52,498 bases of DNA from Candidatus Iainarchaeum sp. (GTDB taxonomy: Archaea > Iainarchaeota > Iainarchaeia > Iainarchaeales > Iainarchaeaceae): the NCBI GenBank assembly GCA_002687735.1, contig NZBD01000015.1:1-52498 (forward strand), in the 5' to 3' direction. The notes beneath the pieces are model-generated. The model was not told the origin of the DNA, did no database searches, and worked only from the letters and a program-made list of their open reading frames with translations. The position numbers and the translations under genes are program-made. Of this stretch, positions 233-40,421 are shown piece by piece. How positions within the stretch are numbered: position 1 is the first letter of the stretch; every line of letters begins with the position of its first letter.

Positions 233-1447
233 ATGGTTGAAAACAAACAAAGACTGATTGATGCTACAAAGCGACTTATTCATACTGGAACCTCAGAAGA
301 GGAAGCTATGAAAAGTATGACTGATATAGGTATAAATGAAAAAGAAGCAAAGGATATTATGGAGCAAGCAAAAGCCGACCCAAAGCATTCAGAGAATAAA
401 GTTGCAGAAAAAACTGCAGAAAAAAAGCCTCCTAGTGATGGTTTTTGGGACTCGCATGACCCTTTGAGTAAAAGAGAAAATAAAAGTGAAAAAAAAGCAT
501 CTGCAGACAATTTAAGAGGTGATTTTTGGGATTCTTCAGGCAAAAGTTTTTTCACACCGACAAAAAATGAAAAACCCGAAAAGAAGCAAGGATTTTCTAT
601 ATTAGGAAAAGGAGACATTCCTGATTTTGAGGGAGCTGAAGCCTCACTTAAACCCAGAAGCCCTGGACATTATGATTACAAAAAAACAGAATTCAGGGAA
701 ACCGTTCCTGTACTGGTTAGCGATTTTGACAAACTGATTGACAAAGGCGGATTAAAAAGAGGAGATACAATCCTAATTTCGGGGGGAGCAGGAACCGGAA
801 AAACAACTTTTGGAATGCAGTTTATTTATGAAGGTGCCAAGCTGAGAAAGGAAAAAGGAGTTTACTTAACTTTAGAGGAAACATCTGAAAAAATTAAGGA
901 AAATATGATGGAAAATTTTGGGTGGGATCTTGATGCATTAGAAAAGGAAGGATTGCTTGCGATAATTAAAATTGATCCTTTGACAATTGCCAGGGCTGTT
1001 GAGGCAACCTTAACAAAAGAAAGGGGAGGCCTTTACATTGAGTTTGAGAAGTTTGATTTGCCTTTCCAGTTTGATCTTCCTTTTAAGCCGGAAAGGGTTG
1101 TGGTTGATTCATTGTCTGCTTTATCAATTGCTTTTGTTGACAACCACCAAGGGTATAGGCAGTACTTGAGGCATTTGTTTGAAACTCTGGAAGGTTATGG
1201 TTCTGTAAATTTAGTTTTTGGCGAAACAGAACAACTGCCGAATGTTTACTCGCGGTTAGGTATTGAGGAATTCCTTGCGGATGCAGTTGTTGTTTTTTAT
1301 AATATTAAAATCCATAACAACAGAGAAACTGCTTTGGAAATTTTAAAATTAAGAAGCAGTGCGCATGCAAAAAAATTAGTGCCGTATAAAATTACGCCCC
1401 GCGGCTTTGAAATTTACATTGATCAGGAAATATTCAGGGAAGACTAA
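233..1447 (+). CDS. KaiC/RAD55-like RecA-superfamily ATPase with N-terminal helical domain and disordered linker
   Basis: Walker A GAGTGKT, TLEE motif, Walker B VVVDS, LKLRSSAH Arg-finger region; about 150 aa N-terminal extension. Confidence 0.9.
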   Translation: MVENKQRLIDATKRLIHTGTSEEEAMKSMTDIGINEKEAKDIMEQAKADPKHSENKVAEKTAEKKPPSDGFWDSHDPLSKRENKSEKKASADNLRGDFWDSSGKSFFTPTKNEKPEKKQGFSILGKGDIPDFEGAEASLKPRSPGHYDYKKTEFRETVPVLVSDFDKLIDKGGLKRGDTILISGGAGTGKTTFGMQFIYEGAKLRKEKGVYLTLEETSEKIKENMMENFGWDLDALEKEGLLAIIKIDPLTIARAVEATLTKERGGLYIEFEKFDLPFQFDLPFKPERVVVDSLSALSIAFVDNHQGYRQYLRHLFETLEGYGSVNLVFGETEQLPNVYSRLGIEEFLADAVVVFYNIKIHNNRETALEILKLRSSAHAKKLVPYKITPRGFEIYIDQEIFRED

Positions 1448-1491
1448 GAAAAACAAAAGAAATAAATACTATTTTTCTTATATAACACAAT

Positions 1492-1704
1492 ATGAACTTT
1501 GATTACATTAAACCGAACATTTCAAGCATTTCAATTTCTTTAATACTCGTAATTATTGTTCATTTTGCTTCAAAAATTTTTGTTTGTGCTCCCGGCCCTT
1601 GCTTAGCCAATAGCATCTATAATAATTATCTTGTTTATGCTTTAGTATTTGTAATAATATATCTGATTATTAATTTGATTCAAATACGCAGAAAAAAAAA
1701 TTAA
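1492..1704 (+). CDS. Small two-TM membrane protein
   Basis: Two hydrophobic stretches with a CAPGPC loop and basic C-terminus; fills the gap between genes. Confidence 0.65.
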   Translation: MNFDYIKPNISSISISLILVIIVHFASKIFVCAPGPCLANSIYNNYLVYALVFVIIYLIINLIQIRRKKN

Positions 1705-1706
1705 AT

Positions 1707-2147
1707 TTATATATTTTCCATCTGGTTGGAAAGCTGTCTTACTTTGCTTATTCTGGTTTTGACGTTTTCCAGTTTCTTTCTCATTCTTCCTCGTTTAAGG
1801 GTTAATGAGTTTTCAACGGAACTAAGTTTTCTCAGCTGGTCTTTTAACTGAACTTCCTTGTTTTGAGTGGAAGTAATATCTCCAACAACCTCATCCAAGG
1901 TTCCTTCTACATCAGCTTTGGCTTCCCTAAGCTGATTGAGTTCCCTAGCAATATCCTTTAATGCTTCTCTTAAAACAGAATGATGCTCCTCATATCTTCC
2001 TGAAGCTTTTCTTACAGGTTTTTTAGCTGTTTTCCTTTTTGTTCTTCGGGTTGTTTTTTTCTTTCTAGCCGGCTTTTTTGCCCTTGCTTTTTTTACTGGC
2101 TTCTTGGCTCTTCGTACTGTTTTTTTCTTTTTAGGCATTAGATCCAT
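1707..2147 (-). CDS. Lys/Arg-rich tail plus coiled-coil protein
   Basis: KKPVKKARAKK-type N-terminus followed by heptad-rich helix. Confidence 0.75.
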   Translation of the reverse strand: MDLMPKKKKTVRRAKKPVKKARAKKPARKKKTTRRTKRKTAKKPVRKASGRYEEHHSVLREALKDIARELNQLREAKADVEGTLDEVVGDITSTQNKEVQLKDQLRKLSSVENSLTLKRGRMRKKLENVKTRISKVRQLSNQMENI

Positions 2148-2197
2148 CTCAAAATTGTTCTAAAATATAAACTCTTTTTCCTTTTTAAACGTTTCTT

Positions 2198-4519
2198 TTA
2201 CGCTTTCAGCAATTTTTCCAACCTTGATTTTCCTTTTGTGTAGGATTCTTTACTTATTACTCCTGAATCATAAGCTTCATTCAATGCGTCAAGCTTTTTT
2301 TCGAACGAATTCATCTGAGCAGCATGCTTCAAACGCTTCGCTTCCCGCTTTATCCTTCTCTTGCCTTTTGTGTACTTATTTTTTGAAATAATTCCTTTTT
2401 TATAAGCTTTTGTTAAAACTCCTGTTTTGTTGTCAAGATTCTGAACTAATTTTTTGGTCATAACATTTTCAGGGTTGATTTTACTGACGTCTGTTTTATA
2501 GAAGTCGTTCATCATATGCTCTAAATCAATTTGTTTTTTGAAAATAGAAAGTTTCTCCTTGAGCGTTCTTTTTTCATCTTTTGATTTTTTCTCACGCATC
2601 TTTTTTGAAAGCCTTTCTTCCAATGAACCGATTTTCTTCTCAAGTTTGCTTATTTGATTTACTAAACGATTATCAACCGGTTTTGCTTTTTTCATTTCAA
2701 TCTTTTCTGAAAGGCTTTTTACTTTTACTTGTAAACTTGAAAGGTTTTCTATTTTGGTTATTTTTTCATTCAGTGCCTTCAGTGCTTTTTGAATTTCTTT
2801 ATTGGCTTGCTCGTCTTCACTTTTAATTTTCTTTTTCTGGGTTGAATCTATCTTTTTCTCTAATCGAGAAATTTCATTAATCAGGCTTTTATCAATTGTT
2901 TTTTCCGGTTTTTTTTCAAGTTTTTTGGAAATTCCCTTAACCTGTTCCTGAAGGTTTTTCAACTCGTCGATTTTGCTTATTTTACCTTTCAATTCATTAA
3001 GGGATTTTGTAACTTCCTTTGTGTTCTGCATTTCTTGAAGCCTTTGTTTAAGTCCGTCCATTTCTCTGGTAACTATTTTGTTCTGTTCATTCTGAACGCT
3101 TAAACCATTCCGGGAAAGTTTTGGAACAGAAAGTGTTTTTTTAATCTGCGTTGGCTGCAGCCTCATTGAAGACTGCTGATCCGGAAAACCCATTTCCCCA
3201 AGTTCAAATTCGGTTAAAGTATTAACGTGATCAACAAACATTCCAAGATCCTTTATTGATTCGCTCTTATAATCCCCTTCAAGAGCAGTGAAAAACGCAT
3301 CGATTCCCGATGCTTTTATTTTTCCGATTAGAGAATGGATAAATTTTGTTACTGTTGATTCTTTTTCATAAATCAAAAGCGTCGAAAGTGAATCAAAAAG
3401 CAGAGCATCTGCATTCTGAGTGTTCAAAGCCTGAGTGATTCCGAGGCTTAGCTCTATTAATGAATTAGGGCTGCTTACAAAAATAGTGTTTTTTTCCTTT
3501 GTTGTACTTTTATCAGAGGTAAGAGTTACTGCATCAACAAAAAAGAATTTTTCAGGTTTTAAATTAAGACTTTTTAAGTGCTGCATTAAACTTTTATAAA
3601 CCTCATTCAGGTTCACATAAATAATTTTTTTGTAAGAAGCCCCTGCTTTTATCAGCAAAGTGGACATTCCGCGTATGTATTCTTTATTTGGGATTATAAG
3701 AATTGTTACTTCGGAGGTTTTAATCTTTTTTATTGCTTTTTCCTGGGTCATTTCTTTTACTGCAGTTTCAATATTTTTTCCTTTTTCTACCTTTTTTTCC
3801 AAAACATCAAGCCCGCTGGAAAATGAAAAACTTGTAAGACCTTTAGGCGGGTTTGTCTTTTTTTCGAGTTTTTTTATTTCAGAATTAAGCACGGTTTCCT
3901 TTTTCGGCTCATCTTTATTAACTTCTTTCTTTTGAGCAGGTTCTTTTTTTACAGGGGATTTAACAATGGGTTTTTTATCTTGCTTTTTCGGCTGGTTTTT
4001 CTCAAGAGGGGAATCAGCGATTATTTCTTTCACTTTTACTTTTCCGCCTTTTTTGAGTTTTGGAATAAATGTTTTTTTCATTTTTGGGGAGATTTCTCTT
4101 TTACCCAAAAAACCTGAAAATAAACTTTTTTTTCCTGTTTTCGGCTCTTTTTCAAGTTCTTTTGTTTGTTCTTCAACCTGTTTAAACAAATTATCTTTCT
4201 CTGGAGAATCTTTCTTAAGAGGGATTTTGATTTTCTGTTTAGGAATTTTTCTCAGGAGATCTTGTTTTGATTCTACTTTTAACCCAGGGATTGGTTTTTT
4301 TATGAGCTCCGTTTTCTTTTGAGGCACTGATTTTGGCTCAGGTTTAGGGTTTGTTTTTGATGCTGTTGCTTCCTTAACCAGTGCAAGAGCCTCTTGTTTA
4401 GTTACTCCAAATTCCCCTAATGAGTCTAATATTTCTTTTTCCGGGGTTTTACTTTCGAGCAGCTTTTTTGTCGCAACTAAAATAGCTTGTTTTCTTTTAG
4501 CATCCATTTTCAAAACCAA
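2198..4519 (-). CDS. Large protein with inactive KaiC/RecA-like (DUF835-like) domain, coiled-coil repeats and two C-terminal SHOCT-like motifs
   Basis: YVNLN, FFFVDAV, LLFDSLSTLLIY (Walker B-like) but no GKT Walker A; AYKKGIISKNKY and AYDSGVISKESY motifs; probable start MDAKRK at 4507. Confidence 0.75.
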   Translation of the reverse strand: MVLKMDAKRKQAILVATKKLLESKTPEKEILDSLGEFGVTKQEALALVKEATASKTNPKPEPKSVPQKKTELIKKPIPGLKVESKQDLLRKIPKQKIKIPLKKDSPEKDNLFKQVEEQTKELEKEPKTGKKSLFSGFLGKREISPKMKKTFIPKLKKGGKVKVKEIIADSPLEKNQPKKQDKKPIVKSPVKKEPAQKKEVNKDEPKKETVLNSEIKKLEKKTNPPKGLTSFSFSSGLDVLEKKVEKGKNIETAVKEMTQEKAIKKIKTSEVTILIIPNKEYIRGMSTLLIKAGASYKKIIYVNLNEVYKSLMQHLKSLNLKPEKFFFVDAVTLTSDKSTTKEKNTIFVSSPNSLIELSLGITQALNTQNADALLFDSLSTLLIYEKESTVTKFIHSLIGKIKASGIDAFFTALEGDYKSESIKDLGMFVDHVNTLTEFELGEMGFPDQQSSMRLQPTQIKKTLSVPKLSRNGLSVQNEQNKIVTREMDGLKQRLQEMQNTKEVTKSLNELKGKISKIDELKNLQEQVKGISKKLEKKPEKTIDKSLINEISRLEKKIDSTQKKKIKSEDEQANKEIQKALKALNEKITKIENLSSLQVKVKSLSEKIEMKKAKPVDNRLVNQISKLEKKIGSLEERLSKKMREKKSKDEKRTLKEKLSIFKKQIDLEHMMNDFYKTDVSKINPENVMTKKLVQNLDNKTGVLTKAYKKGIISKNKYTKGKRRIKREAKRLKHAAQMNSFEKKLDALNEAYDSGVISKESYTKGKSRLEKLLKA

Positions 4520-4543
4520 TTGTTTTTCATTGTTTAAAATACT

Positions 4544-5764
4544 TTATTTTTCCTGTCGAATCTTATGCTCCATCTGTTTTATTTTCTCATCGAGTTCTAT
4601 TAATTTTGACTTGTATGTTGCCATGTTACTTTTGTAGCTTTTTGCCGGCATCACTGCTTTTTCAAAATACTCTCGCTGTAAATCCTTAATGAGTTCTGTT
4701 GTTTTTGCTTTTTCGTTTTTAAGTTTTAATAATTGCACCGAATAATTTATTTTAGTGTAAAATAATTTCGAAACAACTCCTAAAACAAGAACAACCACCA
4801 ATACAATTAACCCATAATTCTTTACCATACAGGTTGCTGAGCAGGTTACTATTAGTTCTATCTTGTGTTCTGATTCATTTCCGGCATTATCCTTCAGATA
4901 AATCCGATAAATTTGGTTTCCTGTTTCTTTTGGGGCATAAGCCAGAATAAGCTCTCCGTTAGAATTTATTTCAAAAGGGATTTTTTCCTGACCAACTCTT
5001 AGTTCAGCCACTTCAATATTTGTCTGTGTAAGACTTACTCCGTTTGAATATGTTACTTTCGCTTTTATTGGTATTTTGTCACTTTGTTCATATGTTTGGT
5101 TTACCGGCTCTATAATCTGAAAAATAAATGATGCAGGAAGGATTTCAATTTCCAAAAGTCTTTCCCCCCCATAAAGTTTACCATCATCTTCTTTTTGTGC
5201 AACAACAGTTAAACCCCATTTTTCTTCAGGAGCATTAAAAGGAACGCCGTAATTCACATCATAAATTCCGTTGCCCTCTGCTTTGAGGTATATTTTTCTT
5301 CCAAACACATCATACATTACAACCTGTGCATCATTCACAATTTCCCCCGAATCTGTCATTTCAATACTTATGAAAATTGTTTCTCCCCTTTTGAAAGCTA
5401 CTCCTGCAGGACTCAGAAAAGTTATTCTGTAAAATGCTGACTCAGGAATTGGTTTTACTATTACAATTATTTCTGTTTCATTTTCAGGAGTAAAAAGTTT
5501 TATTCTCCAGTTGCCACTTGGATCTAAAAAACTGGTTGGGTATTTGAAATCAAACTTTCCATCACTAAAACAATTAATTTGTTCATCAAAAATTTTTTTA
5601 TTGCCAAGCTCTGCACTTATTCTGTGCATATCCCCTAAATCACAGGAACCGGAAAGGATTATTTCACTTCCTTTTTCATAATTAGTCTGCCCAGATTTTA
5701 GGGTTAATGCGCTAGAAAAGCCAGCTAAAAATAAAACCGCCAAAATAATCATTATTTTTCTCAT
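4544..5764 (-). CDS. Secreted Ig-like surface protein with C-terminal TM anchor and coiled-coil tail
   Basis: Signal peptide, beta-rich repeats (LDPSGNW), TM YGLIVLVVVLVLGVV, tail LQREYFEKAVM. Confidence 0.8.
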   Translation of the reverse strand: MRKIMIILAVLFLAGFSSALTLKSGQTNYEKGSEIILSGSCDLGDMHRISAELGNKKIFDEQINCFSDGKFDFKYPTSFLDPSGNWRIKLFTPENETEIIVIVKPIPESAFYRITFLSPAGVAFKRGETIFISIEMTDSGEIVNDAQVVMYDVFGRKIYLKAEGNGIYDVNYGVPFNAPEEKWGLTVVAQKEDDGKLYGGERLLEIEILPASFIFQIIEPVNQTYEQSDKIPIKAKVTYSNGVSLTQTNIEVAELRVGQEKIPFEINSNGELILAYAPKETGNQIYRIYLKDNAGNESEHKIELIVTCSATCMVKNYGLIVLVVVLVLGVVSKLFYTKINYSVQLLKLKNEKAKTTELIKDLQREYFEKAVMPAKSYKSNMATYKSKLIELDEKIKQMEHKIRQEK

Positions 5765-8223
5765 TTTTTTCCACCTTTCTTTTTCTTAATAGTCTGTAGT
5801 TCTTGCTCATATTTAAGCATTAATCCGTCATACTTAGACCTGGAAAGCAGCCCTGACTTGAAATAACGTTCCTGTATATTTATTATATTAGCCTTGATTT
5901 TTTTCTCTTTATTTTTTAACAATTCGGCTTTCTTATCAGATTTATAGTTCCTAATAACTAAAATTAAACCTATTAATATTGCTAAACCAACCACTAAAAT
6001 AATTAACCCGTATTCAGAAAAATAATAATTCAAAGAATAACCAGAAACACTTGCATTAAAAACCGCAGAACCGCTGTTCCCAAAATTATCCTGGGCATTT
6101 ATTGAAACATTAATTTCTTTTTCGTTTTCAACAACGTATTTTGCAACAAAAGAACCGTTATTTTTTTCTGTTTCAACCTTAACCCCATTGATCGTAACAG
6201 TCAGATCTGCTATTTCTGCATCAGCCCCGCTTTCAAATAGAACTTTAAATTCAAAATCTATTTGTTCCCCGATTGGGAAAAATTTTTTAGTCGGCTTTAT
6301 AATGTTCACAAAAAGATTCTCGGTTTTTACTTCCGATTCAAGAATTTTTTTGCCGATTAAGTCATTTACTTCCGCAATTATAATAACTCTTAGTGAGTTT
6401 CCACTAAAATTAGTTGGAAGATTATATTTCAAACTGTAAGAACCATCGTTTTCAGAAGTGAATTTTATTTCCTCACTTCCGATAAATGCTTTTACCACTG
6501 CAGTATCAGCTAAATCTTCTTCTTCCTTTACATTAACAGAAATGTTGATCTGTTCTCCTCTGGAATATTGTGTGTTTATGCCTTTTACAATTTCTATTTC
6601 TACTTGAGACAAAGATTCCGGATTCATGAATATTACACTTTTTTCTGCACGAGCAATATTTTCGGAATCGTCTTCAGCAACTATTCTTATAACCCATGTT
6701 CCTGTTGGATCTAAGGAAAGTGATTTATAAGAATAATTAAAATTTCCAAATTCATTAAGTTCCTGTTTAGTTTCAAAAATAATTTGACCGTCGTTTTCTG
6801 CGGTTATTGTTACTTCTGCATCTACTGGCGAAGATTTTTTGGAAACAGTTCCTGTTATTTCCAGTGAATCGGTAACAATGAATTCTTCCTGGTTAGTGTT
6901 CAGAATAGTTTCCAGCAAAGGAATTACATTCAGCTGCAAATATTTTTTTTGTGAACCAACACTGATTTCTATTGATTCAATCCCTTCTTCAGCAGGGGCT
7001 GTGAAACTGTTCCCGTATATTCCGTCATTAGGATTTTTGTCATTATGTTTTCCATCATCAAATAATTTAACGATTCCGAAAAATCCAGTGGCGGTTACAT
7101 TTTTTCCTGTACCTGCATTAACAAGGATATTGAATTCTTCTTCTAAGTTTAGATAATCCCCAAACTTTGGTTCAATAATTTCTATTGTATTTCCTGAACA
7201 GTCCTCGCTGCATGTTTCTCCTTGTTCACAAAAATCATTACCGCAACAATTTAATGAAACTGAAACTGTGCAGTTTGTTCCGACACATTCGTTTATTGTG
7301 CAAGATTCCTGGATTATTGTTCCTTCAAAGGGTTCGTTTACACAAGATGCAAAGCAGGTGTCAGCATACTGACAAATATCTTTAGTTTTTGGATTAGTAT
7401 CATTACAATCAGAATTTACAGAACAAAGAGGATTACAAATTATAGAACTGCATTCCGCTAGACAAGTGCCTGAATTTTTACAAACATCTATTGTGAGAGG
7501 GTTTTCATCAGCACAATCAAGGCCATTAATACAGGATGGTTCACATGCACTATAAGAACAAGAAGCGGAACATGCTCCAGGATTATTGCAAATGTCCCGG
7601 GTAAAAGGATCGTTATCATTACATGACAATCCATCTGTACATGCAATCGCTGTAAAATCACACTGATTCAGGAAAAGCAATGCAGTTGATGAAATTCCTA
7701 TTGCTTTGAAATTTTCACCTGACGGAGAGTTCCACTCGGATTTAGTTAATAAATCTCCTTCATCGAGAGTTATTTTTCCGTCTTCAGATTTTAAAACTAC
7801 TTTTAGCCTGCTTCCGGAAGCTAAAGTATATGCTTGTTCTAAATTGATCTCGGATTCATTTTTTCCTGACGCTATAGTTCCTGTTGTGATTAATTCATTT
7901 TTAATCGATTTAAAATTATACTCGTAAAGTTCCCAAGTAAGTGATTTTGATGCATCAATGTTATTTGCCCAGAAAGTTATGCTTGTATGAAGTTGTAATC
8001 CTCTTGGAAAAGAGCTTGTATACCACTTTCCTAAAATGCCTTCATCACCAGAATAAAAAACTGTTTTACTTGAGGATGCATTAGGAGGATTGGCAGTCAT
8101 AAAGTTACTTTGACTCCCTTCAAAAAGACTAGTGAAATCGTCTCCTCTTAACCAATAACCATTGCTTGCAGCTATTGAGACTGTAGAAAAAAGTATTATG
8201 AATAATATCCATGCAATTTTCAT
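5761..8223 (-). CDS. Cys-rich repeat / Ig-like surface protein with C-terminal TM anchor
   Basis: Signal peptide, CnDnDPxTxDxC repeats, DDGKHNDKNPNDGIY Ca-binding-like loop, TM, tail IQERYFKSGLLSRSKY. Confidence 0.8.
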   Translation of the reverse strand: MKIAWILFIILFSTVSIAASNGYWLRGDDFTSLFEGSQSNFMTANPPNASSSKTVFYSGDEGILGKWYTSSFPRGLQLHTSITFWANNIDASKSLTWELYEYNFKSIKNELITTGTIASGKNESEINLEQAYTLASGSRLKVVLKSEDGKITLDEGDLLTKSEWNSPSGENFKAIGISSTALLFLNQCDFTAIACTDGLSCNDNDPFTRDICNNPGACSASCSYSACEPSCINGLDCADENPLTIDVCKNSGTCLAECSSIICNPLCSVNSDCNDTNPKTKDICQYADTCFASCVNEPFEGTIIQESCTINECVGTNCTVSVSLNCCGNDFCEQGETCSEDCSGNTIEIIEPKFGDYLNLEEEFNILVNAGTGKNVTATGFFGIVKLFDDGKHNDKNPNDGIYGNSFTAPAEEGIESIEISVGSQKKYLQLNVIPLLETILNTNQEEFIVTDSLEITGTVSKKSSPVDAEVTITAENDGQIIFETKQELNEFGNFNYSYKSLSLDPTGTWVIRIVAEDDSENIARAEKSVIFMNPESLSQVEIEIVKGINTQYSRGEQINISVNVKEEEDLADTAVVKAFIGSEEIKFTSENDGSYSLKYNLPTNFSGNSLRVIIIAEVNDLIGKKILESEVKTENLFVNIIKPTKKFFPIGEQIDFEFKVLFESGADAEIADLTVTINGVKVETEKNNGSFVAKYVVENEKEINVSINAQDNFGNSGSAVFNASVSGYSLNYYFSEYGLIILVVGLAILIGLILVIRNYKSDKKAELLKNKEKKIKANIINIQERYFKSGLLSRSKYDGLMLKYEQELQTIKKKKGGKK

Positions 8224-11200
8224 TTTTTTACCTTCGAAGCCATTTGTTTTATGGTTTCTCTAATGTCCTGCAATTTTGTTTCATGTTTTTCCATCTGCAC
8301 ATCATAGACTTTCTTATCCATTGTTCCCTCGATAAAATACTGCGTCTGGATTCCTTTGACTGTTTCCAAAACCTGTTTCTCTTTATTTCGCAGAGCATTT
8401 ATCCCTAATCTTTTTTTGAGTAAACCATAACCAAAAACAACTGTGATAATTGCTGCAAATAAAAGCAAACCGATGCTTGTTCCGTAAATCCTTAAATAAT
8501 AAAGATAAGAAATTCCTGAAACATCAACTGAAATTTCTTCGGAAACCGTATTATCAAAACCGTCATCAAGACCAATTGTAACTGAAACCGTTCCTTCATC
8601 AGTTGTTTTCACTAAATAAATTCCTTCATAAACCCCATTCCCTATGCTTTTTAGTTCTATTATTTCGTTTCCAACAATACTGGAAATAGATTCCAGTACT
8701 AAAGGAGTGTCATCTTCATAAACAGCATAAATTTTGACTTTTATTTCTTCCCCTGCTAAGAAATTATCTCTTTTTGGCTCTAGTATTTCCAAATTTATTT
8801 TTGCATCATTAACAGTTATACTTGTTTCCACCGAACCTTGTTTGTTTTGTTTTTGTGCAACGACTTTTATATCCAAGTCACCGCTTTGGGTCTGATACGG
8901 GATTCTGAAAGAACCGACATATTCTGATGAATCGTTTTCTTCGAAAGAAAATTTCAAACCATTTGTCTGGCCTTCAACAATCGCATCTGAAACAATGTTG
9001 CCCTCAATGTTTTTTACTGTCACAGAAACCTCTGCTTCAAATCCTTTTTCGAAAATAGTATTGTTAGTGTCTACAATTTCAACAATCAAAAAATTGGTTG
9101 CTTCCGGACTTAACACAGTTATTGTTTTTTCAAAAACACCTACATTTCCGTTTTCATCAGTTGCTTTAATAGTAACAATATAATCTCCTGATTCATTAAT
9201 CAAAGTTGTCCTGTAATTAGAAGAAAAATTCCCGTTAGCGGAATTAAGATCCTGATTCAGGAGAATTTCTCTGTTAAAAGACAGATTCAAATCAAGAGGG
9301 AGGTTCATGTGCTTATCCTTAAGGGTTAATTTTCCTCCGATATTTATGTTATCTCCAAGGACAAAAAATTCTTTATCAAAATCAACCGAAAAACTGAGTT
9401 TTGGAACAATATTAATGAACGCTGTTTTTTCACTTTTAACTCCTCCAAGCTCAACAATAAAAGTCACAGGATAAAGATTTTCTTCAATCGCAGTGTCAAT
9501 AGTGATAAAGTTTGCGTAAATATTGTCGTTTCTTGTTCCTTCATCATGTTTACCATCATTCAGGAGCGGCACAGTTCCAAAAAACCCAATTGCTTTTACA
9601 CCAGCATCACTAACTTTTTCTCCATCAACAAGTAAAGTAACTTTTAATTGAACAGTTTCTCCTCTAACATAGAAAGTATCAGCAAAGGAAGCATCAATTT
9701 CAATATTCTGCGGAACACAATCTGCTGAACAGGTAAAATAATTCTCTCCTGATTCACACCGGTCATTTCCGCAAACTCCGAGTTTTATTGTTGTTTTACA
9801 TGAATTTCCAATACATGCTAATTCATAAATATCAGAAATACTCTCCCCACAAACACCACAATCAGCAGGAGCAGAACATTCTGTTTCTCCGACATCACAA
9901 ACACCATTGCCGACATCAGGAAGATTTTTACATATAGATGAGCACCTTCCTGCACCTGCACAAACATCTGTTGTTTCTGAATTACCATCATCACAATCAG
10001 AATCAGAAGAACAAACAGGATTACAAGAATTATATACACACCCCGCATCACACAAACCCGCATTAGCGCAAAAGTCTGTTGTTAATGTGTCCCCGTCATC
10101 ACAAGCATCATTGCTAGAACACGCAATATTACACTGGCTATTTTCACAATAAGAAGAAATTGTTCCGGGATTCACACAGGTGTCGGTTGTTATATTGCTG
10201 TTGTCATTACAAACAGAATTAGAACTGCAAATTATTTCTTCGTCAGTATCAACAGGATCAGGATCAACAGGATCAGGATCAACAGGATCAGGATCAACAT
10301 TAACATCAACATAGCTGCATGCTGCTGAACAGGTTCCTGGGTTTAAACAAGAATCTGTTGTACTTGAATTAGTATCGTCACAAACAGAAGCATCATTACA
10401 TGCTATTGTACAGGGAGTATTTGAACAGGAGGAACTTTCGGTTCCTGGGTTTAAACAAGAATCTGTGGTCAAACTATTTGTATCATCACAATCAGAATTA
10501 GAGGAACAGGTTATTTCAACACCAGAATCTATATTCTGGCATGCAGAGTTACAACCACCAGCATTGCTGCAAGTATCAATTGTTGAACTCTCAGAATCAT
10601 CACATGAATTATTTGAGTCACATACAACAGAACAACTTCCCGTGGTGTTCAGCAATAATAATGCTGTACTCAAAGCCTGATTAATAGTATACTGGATTCC
10701 GTTAGAAGATGAATAAACAACTGTTTGAGAATCAGACCCTTCGTCCATTATAGCTTGTAAAGTCCCTCCTCCGTTTGCATTATAATCAACAACTAATTTT
10801 GCATAATTCCCTACAGGTATAGTATAGGATGGTATATTGGCAAATGTTTCATGCGAAGACTCTAATGTTGGCAAAACATACCAATCTGACTGAATAATTT
10901 CTGTTTCTGAATAATCATCCATATTAACATCGTAAATTGTCCATCGATAAGTTCCAGTATCATTAGTTATTCCAATATTTGAAAAATATAAAAATGCTGG
11001 ACCGCTTAATACAAAAGATTGCTCTGTGTAAAATCCGATAGGGTCGGCAGTATACCATGTTCTTAATTCGTGGATTCCGGCTTCAGTGGTAATGTTAATT
11101 GTTTCTTTTACTGAATTAGATGTTGGCGAAACAACACTCATTGCATTAAATGTATTAGAATCGATTGTTACTTGGGAAGAAGAGCCCCTAAGATATATTA

Positions 11201-11279
11201 TTTCGTTTGCCCCAAAAACATTTGGAATAAAAAGAATAAATCCTAAAATAATTGCTAATACTAACCATTTTGAGTGCAT
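8220..11279 (-). CDS. Cys-rich repeat / Ig-like surface protein with C-terminal TM anchor (paralog of 5761..8223)
   Basis: Signal peptide, about six CSSNSxCDDxxxxTxDxC repeats, PDPVD repeat, NDGKHD motif, TM, tail IQTQYFIEGTMDKKVY. Confidence 0.8.
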   Translation of the reverse strand: MHSKWLVLAIILGFILFIPNVFGANEIIYLRGSSSQVTIDSNTFNAMSVVSPTSNSVKETINITTEAGIHELRTWYTADPIGFYTEQSFVLSGPAFLYFSNIGITNDTGTYRWTIYDVNMDDYSETEIIQSDWYVLPTLESSHETFANIPSYTIPVGNYAKLVVDYNANGGGTLQAIMDEGSDSQTVVYSSSNGIQYTINQALSTALLLLNTTGSCSVVCDSNNSCDDSESSTIDTCSNAGGCNSACQNIDSGVEITCSSNSDCDDTNSLTTDSCLNPGTESSSCSNTPCTIACNDASVCDDTNSSTTDSCLNPGTCSAACSYVDVNVDPDPVDPDPVDPDPVDTDEEIICSSNSVCNDNSNITTDTCVNPGTISSYCENSQCNIACSSNDACDDGDTLTTDFCANAGLCDAGCVYNSCNPVCSSDSDCDDGNSETTDVCAGAGRCSSICKNLPDVGNGVCDVGETECSAPADCGVCGESISDIYELACIGNSCKTTIKLGVCGNDRCESGENYFTCSADCVPQNIEIDASFADTFYVRGETVQLKVTLLVDGEKVSDAGVKAIGFFGTVPLLNDGKHDEGTRNDNIYANFITIDTAIEENLYPVTFIVELGGVKSEKTAFINIVPKLSFSVDFDKEFFVLGDNINIGGKLTLKDKHMNLPLDLNLSFNREILLNQDLNSANGNFSSNYRTTLINESGDYIVTIKATDENGNVGVFEKTITVLSPEATNFLIVEIVDTNNTIFEKGFEAEVSVTVKNIEGNIVSDAIVEGQTNGLKFSFEENDSSEYVGSFRIPYQTQSGDLDIKVVAQKQNKQGSVETSITVNDAKINLEILEPKRDNFLAGEEIKVKIYAVYEDDTPLVLESISSIVGNEIIELKSIGNGVYEGIYLVKTTDEGTVSVTIGLDDGFDNTVSEEISVDVSGISYLYYLRIYGTSIGLLLFAAIITVVFGYGLLKKRLGINALRNKEKQVLETVKGIQTQYFIEGTMDKKVYDVQMEKHETKLQDIRETIKQMASKVKK
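10248..10299. repeat. 15-bp tandem repeat (about 3.5 copies) encoding a VDPDP linker
   Basis: atcaacaggatcagg x3 plus atcaaca. Confidence 0.95.
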
Positions 11280-11352: not shown

Positions 11353-12705
11353 TTATTCTTGGATTAGTTTCTCTACTTCCGGTTTTATTTGATTAATTAA
11401 CCGATCTAGTTCTTCCCTTGTTTTTGCTTCAAACCTAAGAATTATTTTGGATTGTGTATTGCTTTGCCTTACTAAAGCCCACCCCGTGTCAAAAACTATT
11501 CTGATTCCGTCAATTGTAACTGATTTGGGGTTACTTCCTGAGTATTTCTTAATCATAGTTTCAACTACTTCCTCTTTTTTTCCCTCGGGGCAATCAACCC
11601 GTAATTCAGGAGAAGAAACATATTGCGGCATTTGACCTACAATTTCGCTGAGGTTTTTATCAGAATGAGAAACAATTTCTAGAATTTTTGCAGCCGCTAG
11701 TAATGCATCGTCAAAACCATACCAGCTTTCTGTAAAAAACATATGCCCTGACATTTCTCCTGCAAGAACAGCATTTTCTTCTTTCATTTTTGCCTTGATT
11801 AAAGAATGACCGGTTTTCCACATTATCGGAATGCCTCCTTTTTCTTTAATCCATTCTTCCAAAGATTGCGAACATTTAACCTCAAAAATTATTTTTGAGT
11901 TTGGTTTTCTTTTCAGTAAATCCTCTGAAAAAATTCCAAGAAGTTTGTCCCCGTAAATAAGAGTTCCTTTTTCATCTAAAACACCAACCCTATCAACATC
12001 GCCATCAAAAGCAATTCCTAAATCGGCTTTTTCTTCCAAAACTTTTTTCTTTAAATCCTGAACGTTTTCTTCTTGAACAGGATCAGGCTGGTGATTTGGA
12101 AAACTTGAATCTTTTTCACAAAATAAACAAATAGGATCAATGCCAAGCTGCTTCAAAAGCTTTGGAGCTAATTCAGAGGCCATTCCGTTTCCCGCATCAA
12201 TAACTACTTTTAGTTTTTTTCCAATCTTCACATTGGAAACAATTTCTTCCAAATAAGTGTCATCCAAAAATTTTTCTTTGATAGTTCCTTCTCCCTGAAC
12301 AAATTTTCCTGATTCAGCAACTTTTCTTAATTCCTGAATTTTTGCTCCATAAATTGCTTCTTTTCCAACCATTACTTTGAAACCATTAAATTCCGGGGGG
12401 TTATGAGAAGCAGTAACACTAATGCCTCCATCCGAATCTAATTTGTGAACAGCATAATACATTAGCGGTGTTGGAATCTCTCCGATAAAAACAATATTAA
12501 TTCCTGTACTCAAAATTCCTTTCTTCAAAGCTTCTAATATTCTGGGGCCGCTTTCTCTGTTATCCTTTCCAACAACAACAGTTTTCCCACCATTGTTATG
12601 TATAAGTGTTCCGTATGCTTTTCCGATAAGTTCAGCATCAGAATCCGGAAGATCGGTATCGGCTATTCCTCTGATATCATATTCTCTAAAAATTTCTGGT
12701 TTCAT
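11353..12705 (-). CDS. Phosphomannomutase/phosphoglucomutase
   Basis: IFREYDIRG, TASHNP, FDGDVDR, GEMSGH motifs. Confidence 0.95.
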   Translation of the reverse strand: MKPEIFREYDIRGIADTDLPDSDAELIGKAYGTLIHNNGGKTVVVGKDNRESGPRILEALKKGILSTGINIVFIGEIPTPLMYYAVHKLDSDGGISVTASHNPPEFNGFKVMVGKEAIYGAKIQELRKVAESGKFVQGEGTIKEKFLDDTYLEEIVSNVKIGKKLKVVIDAGNGMASELAPKLLKQLGIDPICLFCEKDSSFPNHQPDPVQEENVQDLKKKVLEEKADLGIAFDGDVDRVGVLDEKGTLIYGDKLLGIFSEDLLKRKPNSKIIFEVKCSQSLEEWIKEKGGIPIMWKTGHSLIKAKMKEENAVLAGEMSGHMFFTESWYGFDDALLAAAKILEIVSHSDKNLSEIVGQMPQYVSSPELRVDCPEGKKEEVVETMIKKYSGSNPKSVTIDGIRIVFDTGWALVRQSNTQSKIILRFEAKTREELDRLINQIKPEVEKLIQE

Positions 12706-12757
12706 GCATGAAAAAAGCTTGAAAAAGTTTTTATTTGGATAATACTTATTTTGTTTA

Positions 12758-13117
12758 ATGAGTAAAAGAAACCCTCGAGCTATACGAGATACTCTTCTGT
12801 ATTGGCAATCTAAAAGAGGCAGTGGAAAGTCAGGGGATTCTCTTCCTTTAATTCAAGCAGTTCAAAGATATGATAAAATTCAAGGCCCACTAACTAGAAT
12901 AGAAAGACATGTTCTGACTGGTTTAATTTTTCAAATTGCATATCGGGCTAATGAAAGAGAAATACAATCTTTGATAAGAAATAAAAAATTACTTTTTGGA
13001 GATAGGTATGATGAAAGGGAATACTCTGAAGGTCAAACAAAAAAACATTTCGAATCTCTTAGATCGAAATTAAAGCACAAAGATGAATTAAAATTCCCGA
13101 AAAAGAAGAAATTATAA
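12758..13117 (+). CDS. Hypothetical basic protein
   Basis: 119-aa ORF filling an intergenic gap; no motif recognised. Confidence 0.6.
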   Translation: MSKRNPRAIRDTLLYWQSKRGSGKSGDSLPLIQAVQRYDKIQGPLTRIERHVLTGLIFQIAYRANEREIQSLIRNKKLLFGDRYDEREYSEGQTKKHFESLRSKLKHKDELKFPKKKKL

Positions 13118-13124
13118 ACATTCA

Positions 13125-13248
13125 GAATAAGGCGAAGTTTCCGGGAAGAATAGCAAGCTACTCTTCCTTTCCGCTCCAATGGTGTTGTAGAAGGTTAATT
13201 CCGAAGAACCACTTCTCCTGCAGCACCGATAAAGATAACACCTAACCC
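13125..13248 (-). ncRNA. Unassigned structured RNA candidate
   Basis: GC-richer island with C(UUCG)G and G(CUUG)C hairpins on the minus strand; TATA-like TTTAAAAT at 13279-13272. Confidence 0.5.
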
Positions 13249-13368
13249 ATAAATAATTTTTTGTTGTTTTAATTTTAAACCCTGAAATCACTAAAACAAT
13301 GAAATCCGAACCCTGCTTTTTTCACAAAATAATATCCCCTTTTAATGCTTTTAACAGCTAATTTTCTT

Positions 13369-13941
13369 ATGCTTATAGGAATTACAGGAAATTTTGTTAC
13401 AGGGAAAAGTGCATTCATGAATATTATGGATAGCCTAGGTTTTGATACATATGAGGCGGATAAAATTGTACAAGACCTTTACAAAAATGAAGAGATAATT
13501 GAAAAAATCGGAAAAGAATTCGGTTCGACAGTAACACTTGGGGAAATTATTGACCGTGACTTGTTGAGAGTCATAGTTTTTAATGATAAAAAGAAACTTA
13601 AGAAACTTAACTCGATAATGCACCCTATTGTGCTTGAAAAAATAAAAGAAATTGAACATGAAAACAAAATTGTTTTTGTTGAGGTTCCTTTACTTTTTGA
13701 AGCAGGAATGGAAAAAAGCTTTGACAAAATAATTTTGATAAAATCTTCTTACGAAACTGCAAAGCAAAGATCAAAGAGAAGAGGTTTCACAGATATTGAG
13801 TTTGAGCAGATAAGGGAAAGCCAAGAACCTGATCAGAAAAAGGAAAAAAAGGCAGACTGGGTTATAGATACGGAAGGAGACATTTCAGAATTGAGAAAAA
13901 AAACAAAGGAAATTGCAAAGGAACTGGAGGCATTGAAATGA
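13369..13941 (+). CDS. coaE: Dephospho-CoA kinase (bacterial type)
   Basis: IGITGNFVTGKS, LNSIMHP, EVPLLFE motifs. Confidence 0.92.
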   Translation: MLIGITGNFVTGKSAFMNIMDSLGFDTYEADKIVQDLYKNEEIIEKIGKEFGSTVTLGEIIDRDLLRVIVFNDKKKLKKLNSIMHPIVLEKIKEIEHENKIVFVEVPLLFEAGMEKSFDKIILIKSSYETAKQRSKRRGFTDIEFEQIRESQEPDQKKEKKADWVIDTEGDISELRKKTKEIAKELEALK

Positions 13942-14414
13942 AAGCAATATACCCCGGTACATTTGATCCGCTTACAAACGGGCATTTGGATGTAATTAAG
14001 CGCGGCCTCAAAATGTTCAATTCTTTAATAATCGGAGTAGCGGTTAATCCTGCAAAAAAACCTTTATTTTCAACAGAGGAAAGAATTGAAATGATAAAAG
14101 AAAGCGTTAAAGATTTAGAAAATGTAGAAGTAAAAGCTTTTGATTCATTACTTGTTGATTTTATTAAAAAGGAAAATGGGTCTGTTATTCTTCGCGGTTT
14201 AAGGGAAACAAGTGATTTTCCTGCTGAGTTCCAGCACGCTATTGTTAACAGGAAACTTGATCCTGAAATTGAAACTGTTTTTGTTATGACAAATGCTGAA
14301 TATTTTTACATTACTTCTGGTATTGTAAAAGAAGTTGCCATGTATAATGGAAAACTCGACACGTTTGTTCCAAAACAGGTTGAATCAAAATTAAAGGCAA
14401 AATATGCCAAATAG
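13938..14414 (+). CDS. coaD: Phosphopantetheine adenylyltransferase (bacterial type)
   Basis: AIYPGTFDPLTNGHLD, LRGLR, IETVF motifs. Confidence 0.95.
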   Translation: MKAIYPGTFDPLTNGHLDVIKRGLKMFNSLIIGVAVNPAKKPLFSTEERIEMIKESVKDLENVEVKAFDSLLVDFIKKENGSVILRGLRETSDFPAEFQHAIVNRKLDPEIETVFVMTNAEYFYITSGIVKEVAMYNGKLDTFVPKQVESKLKAKYAK

Positions 14415-14512
14415 GGGTGTTTTAAGACCTTATCTTTAAATATAAGCACTTTCTATATTAATACAACTTTTTAGGGCATATGCCAAAAATAAAAAGGAGG
14501 AGTGAGAAAAAC

Positions 14513-14977
14513 ATGTTTTTCAAAGAACAAAAAGGACAGTCCGCTTTGGAATACTTGATGACTTACGGCTGGGCATTAATTGTTATATTAATAGTTATTG
14601 TTGCAGTAATAGTGTTTTGGATTCAACCTTCACAGGTTGGCGGAAACACTTGTTCAACCACATCAGGAATCCTGGTAACAAACCATCAACTTTCGGCAAC
14701 AAGCGACGATTTGAGTTTGATTCTTTCAAACCAGACCGCTGCGTCATTGACAAATGTTGATATCAATGTAACAGGAACAATAGGCGGAGTATCAATAACA
14801 GACTCAAATACTCTAGCAACACTTGGAACAATACAACAAACAGCAGTTGTTGATATAACAGATAATAAAGATGTTGCTACCGGTGAAACCTACTCGTTGC
14901 AGGTTACATTCAACTACAGAGACGCATTGGCAAGAACTGTTACATCAACATGTAACACAACGGGAACAGTAGCATAA
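14513..14977 (+). CDS. Archaeal type IV pilin (class III signal peptide)
   Basis: KGQSALEYLMTYGWALIVI; strong GGAGG ribosome-binding site upstream of ATG 14513. Confidence 0.9.
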   Translation: MFFKEQKGQSALEYLMTYGWALIVILIVIVAVIVFWIQPSQVGGNTCSTTSGILVTNHQLSATSDDLSLILSNQTAASLTNVDINVTGTIGGVSITDSNTLATLGTIQQTAVVDITDNKDVATGETYSLQVTFNYRDALARTVTSTCNTTGTVA

Positions 14978-14992
14978 AATTAATTGTTTGAA

Positions 14993-15030
14993 GATTGGGA
15001 CTTTGGTTCCAATCCAATTCTCTTTTTTTT
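14993..15030 (+). terminator. Hairpin plus T-tract after the pilin gene
   Basis: gattggga...ttccaatc stem followed by a T8 run. Confidence 0.55.
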
Positions 15031-15066
15031 AGAAACTTTAAATACTACTTTGACTATTTATAAAAT

Positions 15067-15510
15067 ATGAATAAGTGGCTGAAAATACTTCTTATAGTTG
15101 CTGCAATTATTGTAGTGCTTTTTATTTTACTTCCAATAATCATTGTTATGATTGCTTCATTAGTATTCTTGATTAATCCTTCAGAAATAGGGGCAACTGG
15201 TTGCACAGGATTTCAGCAATTACCAATTGGAAATTTTCAAATTTCCAATGATAGTTTAACAATAAAAATTACTAACCAAACAGGAAGAAACATGAGTACT
15301 GTTGATATTCAAGGAAGCTTTGACGGAGAAGAATATATAAGTTCTAAAGAATATTCTGGAACAGAAACAATAAATGCCAATTCTGAAGCATACGCAAGTT
15401 GGAGCGGTCAACAATTAGAGCCTGGAAATCATACAATAGATTTAATTATTTCCTACAATAATGGAGATTTTATAAAAACAGCAACTGGATCATGCAGAGG
15501 ACAAACTTAA
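15067..15510 (+). CDS. Pilin-like protein lacking the class III processing site
   Basis: Globular part parallels the upstream pilin (INPSEIG..C, ITNQTGR, terminal C.G); N-terminus is a plain TM helix. Confidence 0.7.
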   Translation: MNKWLKILLIVAAIIVVLFILLPIIIVMIASLVFLINPSEIGATGCTGFQQLPIGNFQISNDSLTIKITNQTGRNMSTVDIQGSFDGEEYISSKEYSGTETINANSEAYASWSGQQLEPGNHTIDLIISYNNGDFIKTATGSCRGQT

Positions 15511-15517
15511 ACTAATT

Positions 15518-16516
15518 TTAAATCAGGTTTCCGAAGAAGCTTGTTAATAGGAAACGTGCTGAAAAGAAAACAATCAGTGCAACAATGGTCAGCGGAATAA
15601 TGTACTTCACACCATTAATTTCTTTTCCTGCATTTATAACCCCTATTGTGAGAGAAGAAAATAATGTTGTAAACACCAGCATCACAATAGAAAACATTAC
15701 AATAAAATCAGGATCTAATGTGGCTCCGTCTCCAGAAGCAAAACCTGATATAGGCCCTAAAGAGCCTGACTGAATACTAGCAGGATCAATACTCGGAACT
15801 GCTGAAATCTGGCTGGATAAAACCTGCACAATGAATGAACTTACTCCAAACAACATAGGCGCACCCATAACTGCTGAAAAAAGGATTAAGAGAACATAAA
15901 TTGAAATATTGGATTTTATCTCATCTTCCAATGCAATCTGTTCTTTCAGATCATCACTTAACTGGAATAGTAAATCTGCAATCTGACCTCCGCTTCTTAT
16001 TCCCTGAGATATTAACCAAAGAGTTTTGTCAAGTATTTTTGAACTTATACCAATACTGATCATTCTCAAAGCATTCTCGGTTCTTTCTCCGGAAGCAATT
16101 CTTTTTGAAGCATTTTTCAGCTCTAATTGTAAAGGCCCAAACTCCGGTCTGCCGGCAACAAATAATGCTCTTTCTGTTGTTAAACCGCTTTTCATGTTTG
16201 ATGCAACAAGTCTCAATGCATCAGGGAGAATACTCTCAACAAATTTCCCTTTTGACTCTGAACCCATTTTCATTAAGAGATATGCAATTCCTACAAATCC
16301 AAAAAATGATACTGAAAAAGCAATTATTGGATTGAATTCAAAAAATACAAAAACGTTAGCTGCTACACCAACTCCAAGAAAAAAACCGTACAGAAACAGG
16401 AAACCAACAAACTTGTTAGCATTCATTTCAATGCCATTATAGATTAGCTGCCTCTGGAATTCCTGTCTTATTGAATTAGGGATAAATGCTGAAACTCTAG
16501 TATACACTTTAATCAC
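15518..16516 (-). CDS. Pilus assembly platform protein (TadB/TadC, T2SSF family)
   Basis: LPDALRLVASNMKSGLTTERAL, RPEFGPL, multiple TMs. Confidence 0.9.
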   Translation of the reverse strand: MIKVYTRVSAFIPNSIRQEFQRQLIYNGIEMNANKFVGFLFLYGFFLGVGVAANVFVFFEFNPIIAFSVSFFGFVGIAYLLMKMGSESKGKFVESILPDALRLVASNMKSGLTTERALFVAGRPEFGPLQLELKNASKRIASGERTENALRMISIGISSKILDKTLWLISQGIRSGGQIADLLFQLSDDLKEQIALEDEIKSNISIYVLLILFSAVMGAPMLFGVSSFIVQVLSSQISAVPSIDPASIQSGSLGPISGFASGDGATLDPDFIVMFSIVMLVFTTLFSSLTIGVINAGKEINGVKYIIPLTIVALIVFFSARFLLTSFFGNLI

Positions 16517-17303
16517 CCAACAACGTTGGTCTTGATGATTTTATTATCCCCAGGAACATGAACTGACCAATAGCAATAAACACAAGCATACCCCAAAAAA
16601 CCTCTTCACCAATCTCAATCTGCGGGAATACCGATAGAATTATCAAAAAAGTAAGGCCAAGCGAAGGAATTATTGCTCCAAGCATCATGTAAAGAAGAGA
16701 AAGTAATTTTAGGGAATTACCATATTTTCTAACTTGATTGCTTTTTTCTTTTGAAAGATCATCGACCAGAGACTGCATTATTTGGCTCACATCTGAACCT
16801 GCTTTCAGACCATTAACTAACTGCCAGATTGTTCTTCTGAAATAAATTGACGGATTATTTTCACCCATTTCTTCAAGAGCAATTTCCTGAAACTTCCCTG
16901 TTTCAATTTTTTCAACTGCTTTTTTGAATTCTACACTTACTTGCCCATTGTCTCCTTCAGCAACAATATTAATCGCGTCAAAAAGAGTTACTCCTGATTT
17001 TATTTCCACAAGAATAGTTCTTAATGCAAAAACAAGATTTCTTTCAATACTTCTTACTTTTTTTTTCAGAATAATTTTCGGGTAAAAGAGTAACTGCACA
17101 GCAACCAATGAACCAAACAAAAAACCAAGCAATGGAGGCATAGTAAGCATCTGTTCAGGGGCAAGCCTTGAAACAAAAACTGCCGCAATAAGGGTTCCAA
17201 AAGCAAAATATAACACAAACATCAGAGCAATTATTGCTCCGTAAGTTTCTCTGCTAAAATCCATTTCAGCCTGTTGTAATTCAGTTTTTAGAAAAGGAAA
17301 CAT
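16509..17303 (-). CDS. Pilus assembly platform protein (TadB/TadC, T2SSF family), 5' end apparently truncated
   Basis: IERNLVFALR, WQLVNGLKAGSDV; frame open about 40 codons upstream with no ATG/GTG/TTG. Confidence 0.85.
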   Translation of the reverse strand: MFPFLKTELQQAEMDFSRETYGAIIALMFVLYFAFGTLIAAVFVSRLAPEQMLTMPPLLGFLFGSLVAVQLLFYPKIILKKKVRSIERNLVFALRTILVEIKSGVTLFDAINIVAEGDNGQVSVEFKKAVEKIETGKFQEIALEEMGENNPSIYFRRTIWQLVNGLKAGSDVSQIMQSLVDDLSKEKSNQVRKYGNSLKLLSLLYMMLGAIIPSLGLTFLIILSVFPQIEIGEEVFWGMLVFIAIGQFMFLGIIKSSRPTLLGD

Positions 17304-17353
17304 CTGACTTATTGTGCTTCCAATTCCTCTGAAATTGTTAGCTAATCCTAGAA

Positions 17354-17752: not shown

Positions 17753-17893
17753 GAATAAAACCAATAATAACAACACGTGTTCGATATAAAAATTTAGCGA
17801 AAACATAGCTAAAATCAGGAAAAACCGTCTTTTTAGCGTTTTTTTAGGTTTTAGAAAGATTTTTAGAGGTTTTCAAGCAAATTATGTATAGTT

Positions 17894-40330: not shown

Positions 40331-40421
40331 AGTATCACATTATAGTTTGCTTTGAACTTGTATTTATATCTTTTCAAATGCTTAAATTGTATTTATATTA
40401 ATTTATGTTCTAATAAAAATT

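Follow-up and report, generated by a model that had tools for sequence, protein, structure and literature searches.

Positions 233 to 11,279 of the 52,498-nucleotide stretch analyzed here (the window; contig NZBD01000015.1 of a Candidatus Iainarchaeum genome, 552 kb and 63% complete, order Iainarchaeales) hold six genes, which the open reading frame (ORF) call places in the order K404, B146, S773, T406, T820, and T1019. The T genes encode predicted surface proteins, K404 a KaiC-like ATPase, and S773 and B146 accessory proteins. This layout was confirmed as it had been described in the original prediction, a reading of the sequence made ahead of this analysis, including the 4-nt overlaps among the three surface genes: the intergenic distances from T1019 to K404 are -4, -4, 24, 50, and 259 nt, and the five quoted motifs were located at residues 977 (T1019), 783 (T820), 362 (T406), and 705 and 749 (S773). 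A core of this locus is conserved in three parts, namely a long surface protein, a short surface protein of ∼400 residues, and an ATPase of one KaiC clade, and this cassette is a real and phylum-wide variant of the archaeal KaiC modules that is apparently undescribed. We tentatively propose, with confidence that stops a little short of even, that it encodes a trans-membrane receptor or adhesin complex in which the hairpin tails of the surface proteins dock on the K404-type ATPase, whose ring would cluster the stalks or relay their engagement; that the surface set links the cell surface to an ATP-driven cytoplasmic switch is likely. The window locus is an enlarged version of the cassette, with the long gene doubled and S773 and B146 placed between T406 and an inverted K404:

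8220..11279, minus strand: T1019, a long-family surface protein with a signal peptide, a jelly-roll domain (∼19-213), Cys-rich repeats, four macroglobulin (MG)-type immunoglobulin (Ig) domains (525-921), a transmembrane (TM) helix, and a predicted cytoplasmic hairpin tail (ORF; model with a predicted local distance difference test score, pLDDT, of 85).
8223..8420, minus strand: predicted cytoplasmic tail of T1019, residues ∼954-1019 (model helices, conservation).
5761..8223, minus strand: T820, the second long-family paralogue, with a jelly-roll-like N-terminal domain, Cys repeats, a choice-of-anchor X motif, Ig domains, a TM helix, and a tail.
5764..5943, minus strand: predicted cytoplasmic tail of T820, residues ∼761-820 (alignment).
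4544..5764, minus strand: T406, a short-family surface protein with a signal peptide, three MG-type Ig domains, and a TM helix that continues into a hairpin tail.
4547..4756, minus strand: predicted cytoplasmic tail of T406, residues ∼337-406 (alignment, model, conservation).
2198..4519, minus strand: S773, an accessory cytoplasmic protein with a ∼55-residue N-terminal helical domain common with K404, a low-complexity basic linker, a KaiC-fold domain without Walker A (∼270-440), a coiled coil, and two SHOCT-like repeats.
1707..2147, minus strand: B146, a basic coiled-coil accessory protein (ORF, homologues).
233..1447, plus strand: K404, a KaiC-like ATPase with a single KaiC domain, preceded by a helical N-terminal domain (1-57) and a linker; member of the cassette-dedicated clade.
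974..1096, plus strand: clade-specific segment of K404, residues 248-288, at the KaiC CI B-loop position; candidate tail-docking site.
11353..17806: context outside the core, with phosphomannomutase, CoaE, CoaD, and pilin-like genes and two T2SSF (TadB/TadC-type) genes.

The conservation of the cassette was surveyed in 215 Iainarchaeota genomes, using cut-offs (E <1e-50 for the short family, E up to 1e-55 for the ATPase clade) that were chosen after inspection of the match lists and counting related genomes that are not independent of one another. A strong short-family match is present in 57 genomes, the KaiC clade in 57, and both in 54, and a further 43 of the 215 have weaker matches to T proteins. 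A Fisher P value was disregarded because kinship overstates it. The clade is one side of a branch in the ATPase tree (62 rows; Shimodaira-Hasegawa-like approximate likelihood ratio test support of 92). In 80 retrieved loci, 54 of the 59 genes of this clade have a T gene no more than 3.2 kb away (39 of these on the same strand and within 510 nt), a count that leans upward because the loci were mostly fetched around T hits, and the remaining five lie within 188 nt of a contig end. As a control, a tailed T gene was found at none of 72 KaiC loci outside the clade (two weak tail-less matches were present, and many of these contigs are short), and of three KaiC loci scoring above the clade score, one (L103) has an adjacent tailed T gene.

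Across the 80 mapped loci, the core recurs in several gene orders and in up to four copies per genome, and the trio stays together while the flanking genes switch to unrelated housekeeping genes. Tree distances among the three cassette genes (long, short, and ATPase trees, 40 cassettes) are correlated, with r of 0.70, 0.53, and 0.61, and in the three trees a copy has another from the same genome as its nearest neighbour in only 0, 2, and 1 of 18 cases. It follows that duplication of the trio as a unit took place long ago. One genome (G053) in which the short protein is tail-less is also without the clade ATPase, and was counted in favor of the coupling. The surface proteins and a KaiC-like ATPase thus show strong co-conservation on the gene maps, the genome and locus counts, and the congruent trees. 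Homologues of the ATPase are mostly labelled Diapherotrites or Iainarchaeum at source, with three Micrarchaeota and one Woesearchaeota that may be misassigned; a wider set of 470 representatives at E up to 1e-30 carries no taxonomy. The window genome also holds the remnant of a second cassette (G000:C2:20038-20337, L180), consisting of the last third of a clade ATPase gene, which shares 90% identity with its intact counterpart in G002 (L099); the genes for a long surface protein and a Cys-rich protein found at that place in G002 are missing, consistent with one deletion.

The three surface proteins of the window are paralogues over their full length, Ig stalks included, and not in their tails alone (BLAST E 1e-11 to 1e-63). 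T820 matches T1019 at E 9e-64, with N-terminal domains 26% identical, and is a duplicate within the T1019 family; the conserved core has two surface families, and not the unit of three paralogues that had been proposed. The earlier description of all three as secreted Ig/Cys-repeat proteins holds for the Ig domains and for the Cys-rich T820 and T1019 (26 and 42 Cys), but not for T406, which is no Cys-repeat protein because it has just four. N-glycosylation sequons before and after the TM helix number 11/0, 11/0, and 3/1, and the tails are rich in Lys and Arg, as expected if the N-terminus lies outside and the tail inside the cell. No Pfam family scores above cut-off for T1019, T820, or T406, and T820 matches the choice-of-anchor X profile NF041940 (E 4e-9) above its cut-off.

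In the T406 model (pLDDT 90), three beta-sandwiches are followed by one long helix (310-368), of which the TM segment is part; five residues of loop then lead to a second helix (374-405) that runs back. For T1019, the model (pLDDT 85; predicted template modelling score, pTM, 0.35) shows in addition an N-terminal beta domain, the Cys-rich repeats, and a fourth sandwich, and it closes with the same hairpin (helices 925-983 and 989-1018). The modelled sandwiches match macroglobulin domains, with Z 11.8, a root-mean-square deviation (rmsd) of 2.1, and 88 aligned residues for T406, and Z 13.4, rmsd 1.7, and 93 aligned residues for T1019 (to 2p9r). The tandem MG-type sandwiches resemble those of the alpha-2-macroglobulin/complement proteins (Z 11.8-13.6), but differ in their arrangement (rmsd 11-23) and in being three or four in number before a TM helix and cytoplasmic tail. 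In the alpha-2-macroglobulin family, the MG domains are followed by a bait region and a thioester domain; the modelled T string ends in the TM helix and tail, which places these proteins outside that family. Matches of T406 in the Atlas score <0.9 and fall on MG2-bearing archaeal clusters, which serve as leads only.

The modelled N-terminal domain of T1019 matches peptidase and esterase structures, including 8yzn (Z 14.0, rmsd 3.3, 158 aligned) and 6nff (Z 12.6), the matched domains of which we take to be galactose-binding-like jelly rolls, and it has Atlas matches of 0.92-0.93 to unnamed clusters; the Cys-repeat region was scarcely covered by the fold searches. Of 66 long-family proteins, 23 have the jelly-roll domain, and every one of these is encoded at the locus type of the window, indicating that the distal end varies whereas the stalk and tail are constant.

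A string of Ig domains anchored in the membrane also brings to mind a structural role in the envelope, in which the T proteins would be SlaB-like stalks holding an S-layer or surface coat and the ATPase would serve assembly or turnover, not signalling. SlaB of Sulfolobus (8qox_B) is likewise a membrane-anchored Ig stalk and is among the fold matches (Z 10.0-10.4), the stalks here are rich in sequons, and a gene for phosphomannomutase is found upstream, in the same orientation. The recurring extra neighbour of the cassette, a variable Cys-rich or Ig-bearing secreted protein that often adjoins it (a cluster of 16 neighbours), would suit such a coat as well. However, the SlaB match has an rmsd >20 and is one of many to Ig strings. 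SlaB has Ig domains and an extracellular coiled coil ahead of its C-terminal TM helix, while in the T models the coiled coil comes after the TM helix and is cytoplasmic. The strong family is furthermore confined to the 57 genomes counted above, is sometimes multicopy, and has its second cassette largely deleted in the window genome, a distribution that is patchy for a core envelope part. We consider this role quite unlikely.

The tails carry the Gln-x-x-Tyr-Phe motif, which conservation indicates is not due to chance. In alignments of 44 tails of each type (T406 and T1019), 41 and 40 rows, respectively, retain the Tyr, and 39 and 36 retain the Gln. Conservation in both sets extends to the Phe of the Tyr-Phe pair and to a second aromatic residue eleven positions further, and the short-family and long-family profiles align with a probability of 99.6%. 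The helical hairpins that had been expected are seen in the models of T406 and T1019, each with two helices and a short loop within 50 residues of the C-terminus. Matches of this fold to CdvA, OST1, and ESCRT hairpins (Z ∼10) were dismissed as common helical arrangements.

The name SHOCT-like, under which the tails were introduced, fits them in part. Like SHOCT (PF09851), they are predicted to be short C-terminal helix-loop-helix units, often with a Gly in the loop, but they have longer helices and the Gln-x-x-Tyr-Phe signature. No match to the Pfam model was obtained for the last 71 residues of each T protein at E up to 1; the last repeat of S773, the one place where the label may apply, reaches E 1.2e-5 (25.3 bits), below the curated cut-off of 27. 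The SHOCT-type Gly is present in 16 of 44 T406-type and 26 of 44 T1019-type tails, and Glu before the second aromatic, presumably the position of the conserved Glu of SHOCT, in 3 and 18. Strong conservation of this Gly and Glu defines the domain (PMC3581485). Because they have no Pfam match and keep the Gly and Glu poorly, the T tails are, by sequence and model, SHOCT-like in shape but not members of SHOCT. The associated idea that SHOCT domains mediate oligomerisation found no support in the experiment reported in that same paper (PMC3581485).

K404 matches the KaiC profile PF06745 at E 2e-49 (168.6 bits; cut-off 26.6) and has Walker A at 184, a Glu pair at 215-216, and a Lys/Arg finger motif at 372. 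The earlier label of an active KaiC-like ATPase is thus upheld for the family and the catalytic motifs, from which the activity itself is predicted. The protein is closer to the CI domain of KaiC (E 5e-34) than to CII (E 9e-13) and lies beneath the cut-off of every NCBIfam KaiC family. It is a single-domain protein scoring 101 bits to the clock KaiC model TIGR02655 (cut-off 546), and so is no circadian KaiC. At 22.7 bits against a cut-off of 215, it is not ArlH by score. It shares the fold family and catalytic motifs with cyanobacterial KaiC CI, and differs from cyanobacterial KaiC in having one domain and the CI-type Glu-Glu pair, without the CII Ser/Thr at that position, which we take to be the clock phospho-sites.

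The most distinctive conserved segment of K404 (248-288), the part that separates this clade from its T-less sister rows, falls in the alignment on the stretch of CI in which B-loop residues F122 and D123 are located. In cyanobacterial KaiC, the B-loop region is the docking site of KaiB and SasA (bioRxiv 10.1101/2020.06.17.158394). No KaiB gene was found among 119 neighbour proteins scanned around the cassettes. Two sister rows of the tree (L104, L105) share the flanks of the segment and not its central Ala-Arg-x-Val-Glu helix; both of these ATPase genes lie directly behind a pilin-like gene without a T gene nearby, and that of L104 precedes PAS and histidine-kinase-like genes, as assigned from sequence. 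Elsewhere in the window, a third stand-alone KaiC-like ATPase of a different clade is encoded at 39584-40330 (minus strand).

S773 has, as had been stated, an inactive KaiC-like domain (DUF7504/KaiC fold, E 7e-9, 36.8 bits, cut-off 27; no Walker A) followed by two motifs. The original prediction placed this protein at the center, with the three tails binding its two SHOCT-like repeats and S773 acting as a scaffold for the ATPase. Such wiring would be in keeping with the position of the S773 gene, 24 nt behind T406 on the same strand, with the resemblance by eye of its repeats to the tails, and with a different SHOCT-ended cytoplasmic protein in the L039 cassette. Most cassettes, however, have no S-type gene: the 22 found in 80 loci are confined to one locus type, and 19 of 59 clade ATPase genes have one in their locus at the cut-off used. 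The S-type proteins (200-808 residues) carry the SHOCT-like end in 13 of 22, and it is absent in nine (one of them cut by a contig end), though the tails are conserved. A profile of the S repeats matched only two T proteins, at 14-16 bits, and the oligomerisation test noted above was negative. We therefore regard docking of the tails on an S773 scaffold as very improbable.

Instead, S773 appears to be tied to the ATPase more than to the tails, as K404 and S773 begin with a common ∼55-residue domain that is found in 21 of 59 clade ATPases, and an S gene is in the locus of 18 of these 21, compared with one of the 38 ATPases without the domain (that one cut at a contig end). This domain may be a shared interaction module. 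It also starts a 217-residue coiled-coil protein with a hydrophobic C-terminus (G000:C15:85005-85658, L177) and a 509-residue coiled-coil protein in a MinD/DUF2226 cluster (G000:C8:17999-19528, L178), and a similar unit is found at the end of several T-like proteins from genomes free of the clade ATPase, with one weak match to the first helix domain of RecX. The closest named relative of S773, and its sole close one in a single-protein locus search, is from a Candidatus Iainarchaeum metagenome-assembled genome (78% identity). Homologues of B146 occur in 25 of 215 genomes, and the 17 best of them lie at cassette loci by coordinates; its Pfam matches were rejected as generic coiled coil. In relatives, the locus continues beyond K404 with a second KaiC (238 residues), a second inactive KaiC-fold protein (201 residues), and a 425-residue coiled-coil protein; in the window genome these three genes are on another contig (G000:C17:4157-7411, L179), with a DDE transposase at the contig break.

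The proximity of pilus genes raises the alternative that the cassette is a type IV pilus accessory, with the surface proteins serving a Tad-type pilus as stator-like anchors or as adhesins, and K404 and S773 acting on a motor ATPase in the manner of ArlH. TadB/TadC-type and pilin-like genes lie 3-6 kb from the cassette in the window, a TadC-like gene is present in the retrieved stretch at 8 of 58 clade-ATPase loci, and two of these eight (L060 and L080) are of another cassette type and lie beside a T2SSE ATPase; the occurrence of the K404 N-terminal domain in the MinD/DUF2226 cluster points the same way. KaiC families are known at archaeal pilus loci (PMC4858521), and ArlH binds ArlI (PMC10983859). 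Against this, 50 of the 58 loci have no TadC-like gene in the stretch that was fetched (many stretches being short), most cassette neighbours are unrelated housekeeping genes, and K404 falls far below the ArlH cut-off. We judge a role as pilus accessory unlikely. The pilin-like and two T2SSF genes of the window (14480-17806) have no adjoining pilus ATPase, the nearest homologue of which is at C15:101349-102926 of the same genome, and the gene order of the 11353..17806 context is seen again at the same locus type in relatives. Other genes of the window encode a XerA-like tyrosine recombinase (26487-27329, plus strand) and, at 36329-44630, a 738-residue Ig-domain single-pass protein, a 408-residue CARDB protein, and an apparent ATP-binding cassette (ABC) permease and ATPase. 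A scan for sigma-70 promoters gave 40 matches against 40.3 expected by chance, with a model that is unsuited to an archaeon.

Several observations weigh against docking of the tails on K404. T-like proteins with related tails occur in six inspected genomes with no clade ATPase at the cut-off (G123, G113, G108, G096, G103, and G151), the clade ATPase is likewise missing from G095 (90% complete) and G112 (73%), whose tailed pairs lie on short contigs, and the tailed long protein of L056 has no ATPase within 20 kb. The short protein is missing from at least six loci that keep the long protein and the ATPase (L057-L061, L099), and a heterodimer is thus not obligatory. The short proteins of G015 and G017 group apart from their two partners in the trees, K404 is on the opposite strand to the surface genes, and the neighbours of the cassettes include no recurring transcription factor or kinase that could be a signal output. 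With regard to two of these cases, the long-family relatives in G123, G113, and G108 (L064-L066) have lengthened cytoplasmic parts that end tail-like, and the short proteins of G017 and G015 (L028, L029) group with the locus type of the window and their partners elsewhere, which suggests a recombined cassette.

Tails without the clade ATPase could also mean that the genes share no more than their regulation, in a surface-protein island whose tails serve self-association or membrane localisation and make no contact with the ATPase. A role as membrane anchors has been suggested for SHOCT-like helices (PMC11237479), and linkage alone would yield congruent trees without binding. On the other hand, a single ATPase clade has been kept beside the T genes despite changes in order and strand, and it has conserved residues at a known docking face. 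Shared regulation alone accordingly seems distinctly unlikely to us.

Under the receptor or adhesin complex proposed at the outset, the two surface families would pair side by side via their TM helices and coiled coils, with the long protein bearing the variable binding end and the short protein bracing it. The conserved Gln-x-x-Tyr-Phe hairpin would bind the B-loop-equivalent face of a K404 hexamer, and with tails on that face a single ring could bring several stalks together. Depending on its nucleotide state, the ring may then switch stalk clustering, or it may report ligand engagement inward. At the window locus only, S773 and B146 would be add-on adaptors, probably tied to K404 via the shared N-terminal domain, and may relay the signal to the adjacent pilus system. 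A bolder and rather doubtful extension is an integrin-like archaeal system, in which paired single-pass macroglobulin-fold receptors with swappable ligand ends would be assembled and switched from the cytoplasm by a KaiC ring through the face used by KaiB.

KaiC-like ATPases with inactivated iKaiC domains have been proposed as signalling hubs in archaea (Makarova, Galperin, Koonin 2017, as cited in PMC5847659 and PMC10983859), and such ATPases with inactive partners near membrane systems are a known, predicted kind (PMC5847659, PMC4858521, PMC10983859). The window locus conforms to this kind in that membrane proteins and a KaiC-fold protein lacking the P-loop accompany a KaiC ATPase of one domain; it differs in the nature of the cassette partners, which are MG/Ig stalk proteins that cross the membrane once and belong to no Pfam family. 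ArlH (FlaH) and the pilus-locus KaiC families similarly combine a KaiC-type ATPase with a membrane-embedded surface machine (PMC4858521, PMC10983859), but most cassettes have no pilus gene nearby, and the proposed partner is a receptor tail and not a motor ATPase. No description of the cassette was found in the literature searched by title and abstract opening, and the 2017 classification of archaeal KaiC proteins and its supplements may list the clade.

For most archaeal KaiC-like ATPases proposed as signalling hubs, the input partner is unknown (PMC4858521); the cassette offers a specific, soluble candidate pair, a 65-residue tail and a 250-residue ATPase. The host attachment by a DPANN symbiont that accompanied the original prediction is conjectural, and Iainarchaeota have been described as putatively free-living (PMC12892359). 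The cassette also points to conserved surface machinery in an uncultured DPANN phylum of debated host dependence. If the integrin-like system were real, an archaeal KaiC hub would for the first time be seen to receive direct input from a membrane receptor, and the duplicated cassettes may recognise different surfaces or hosts.

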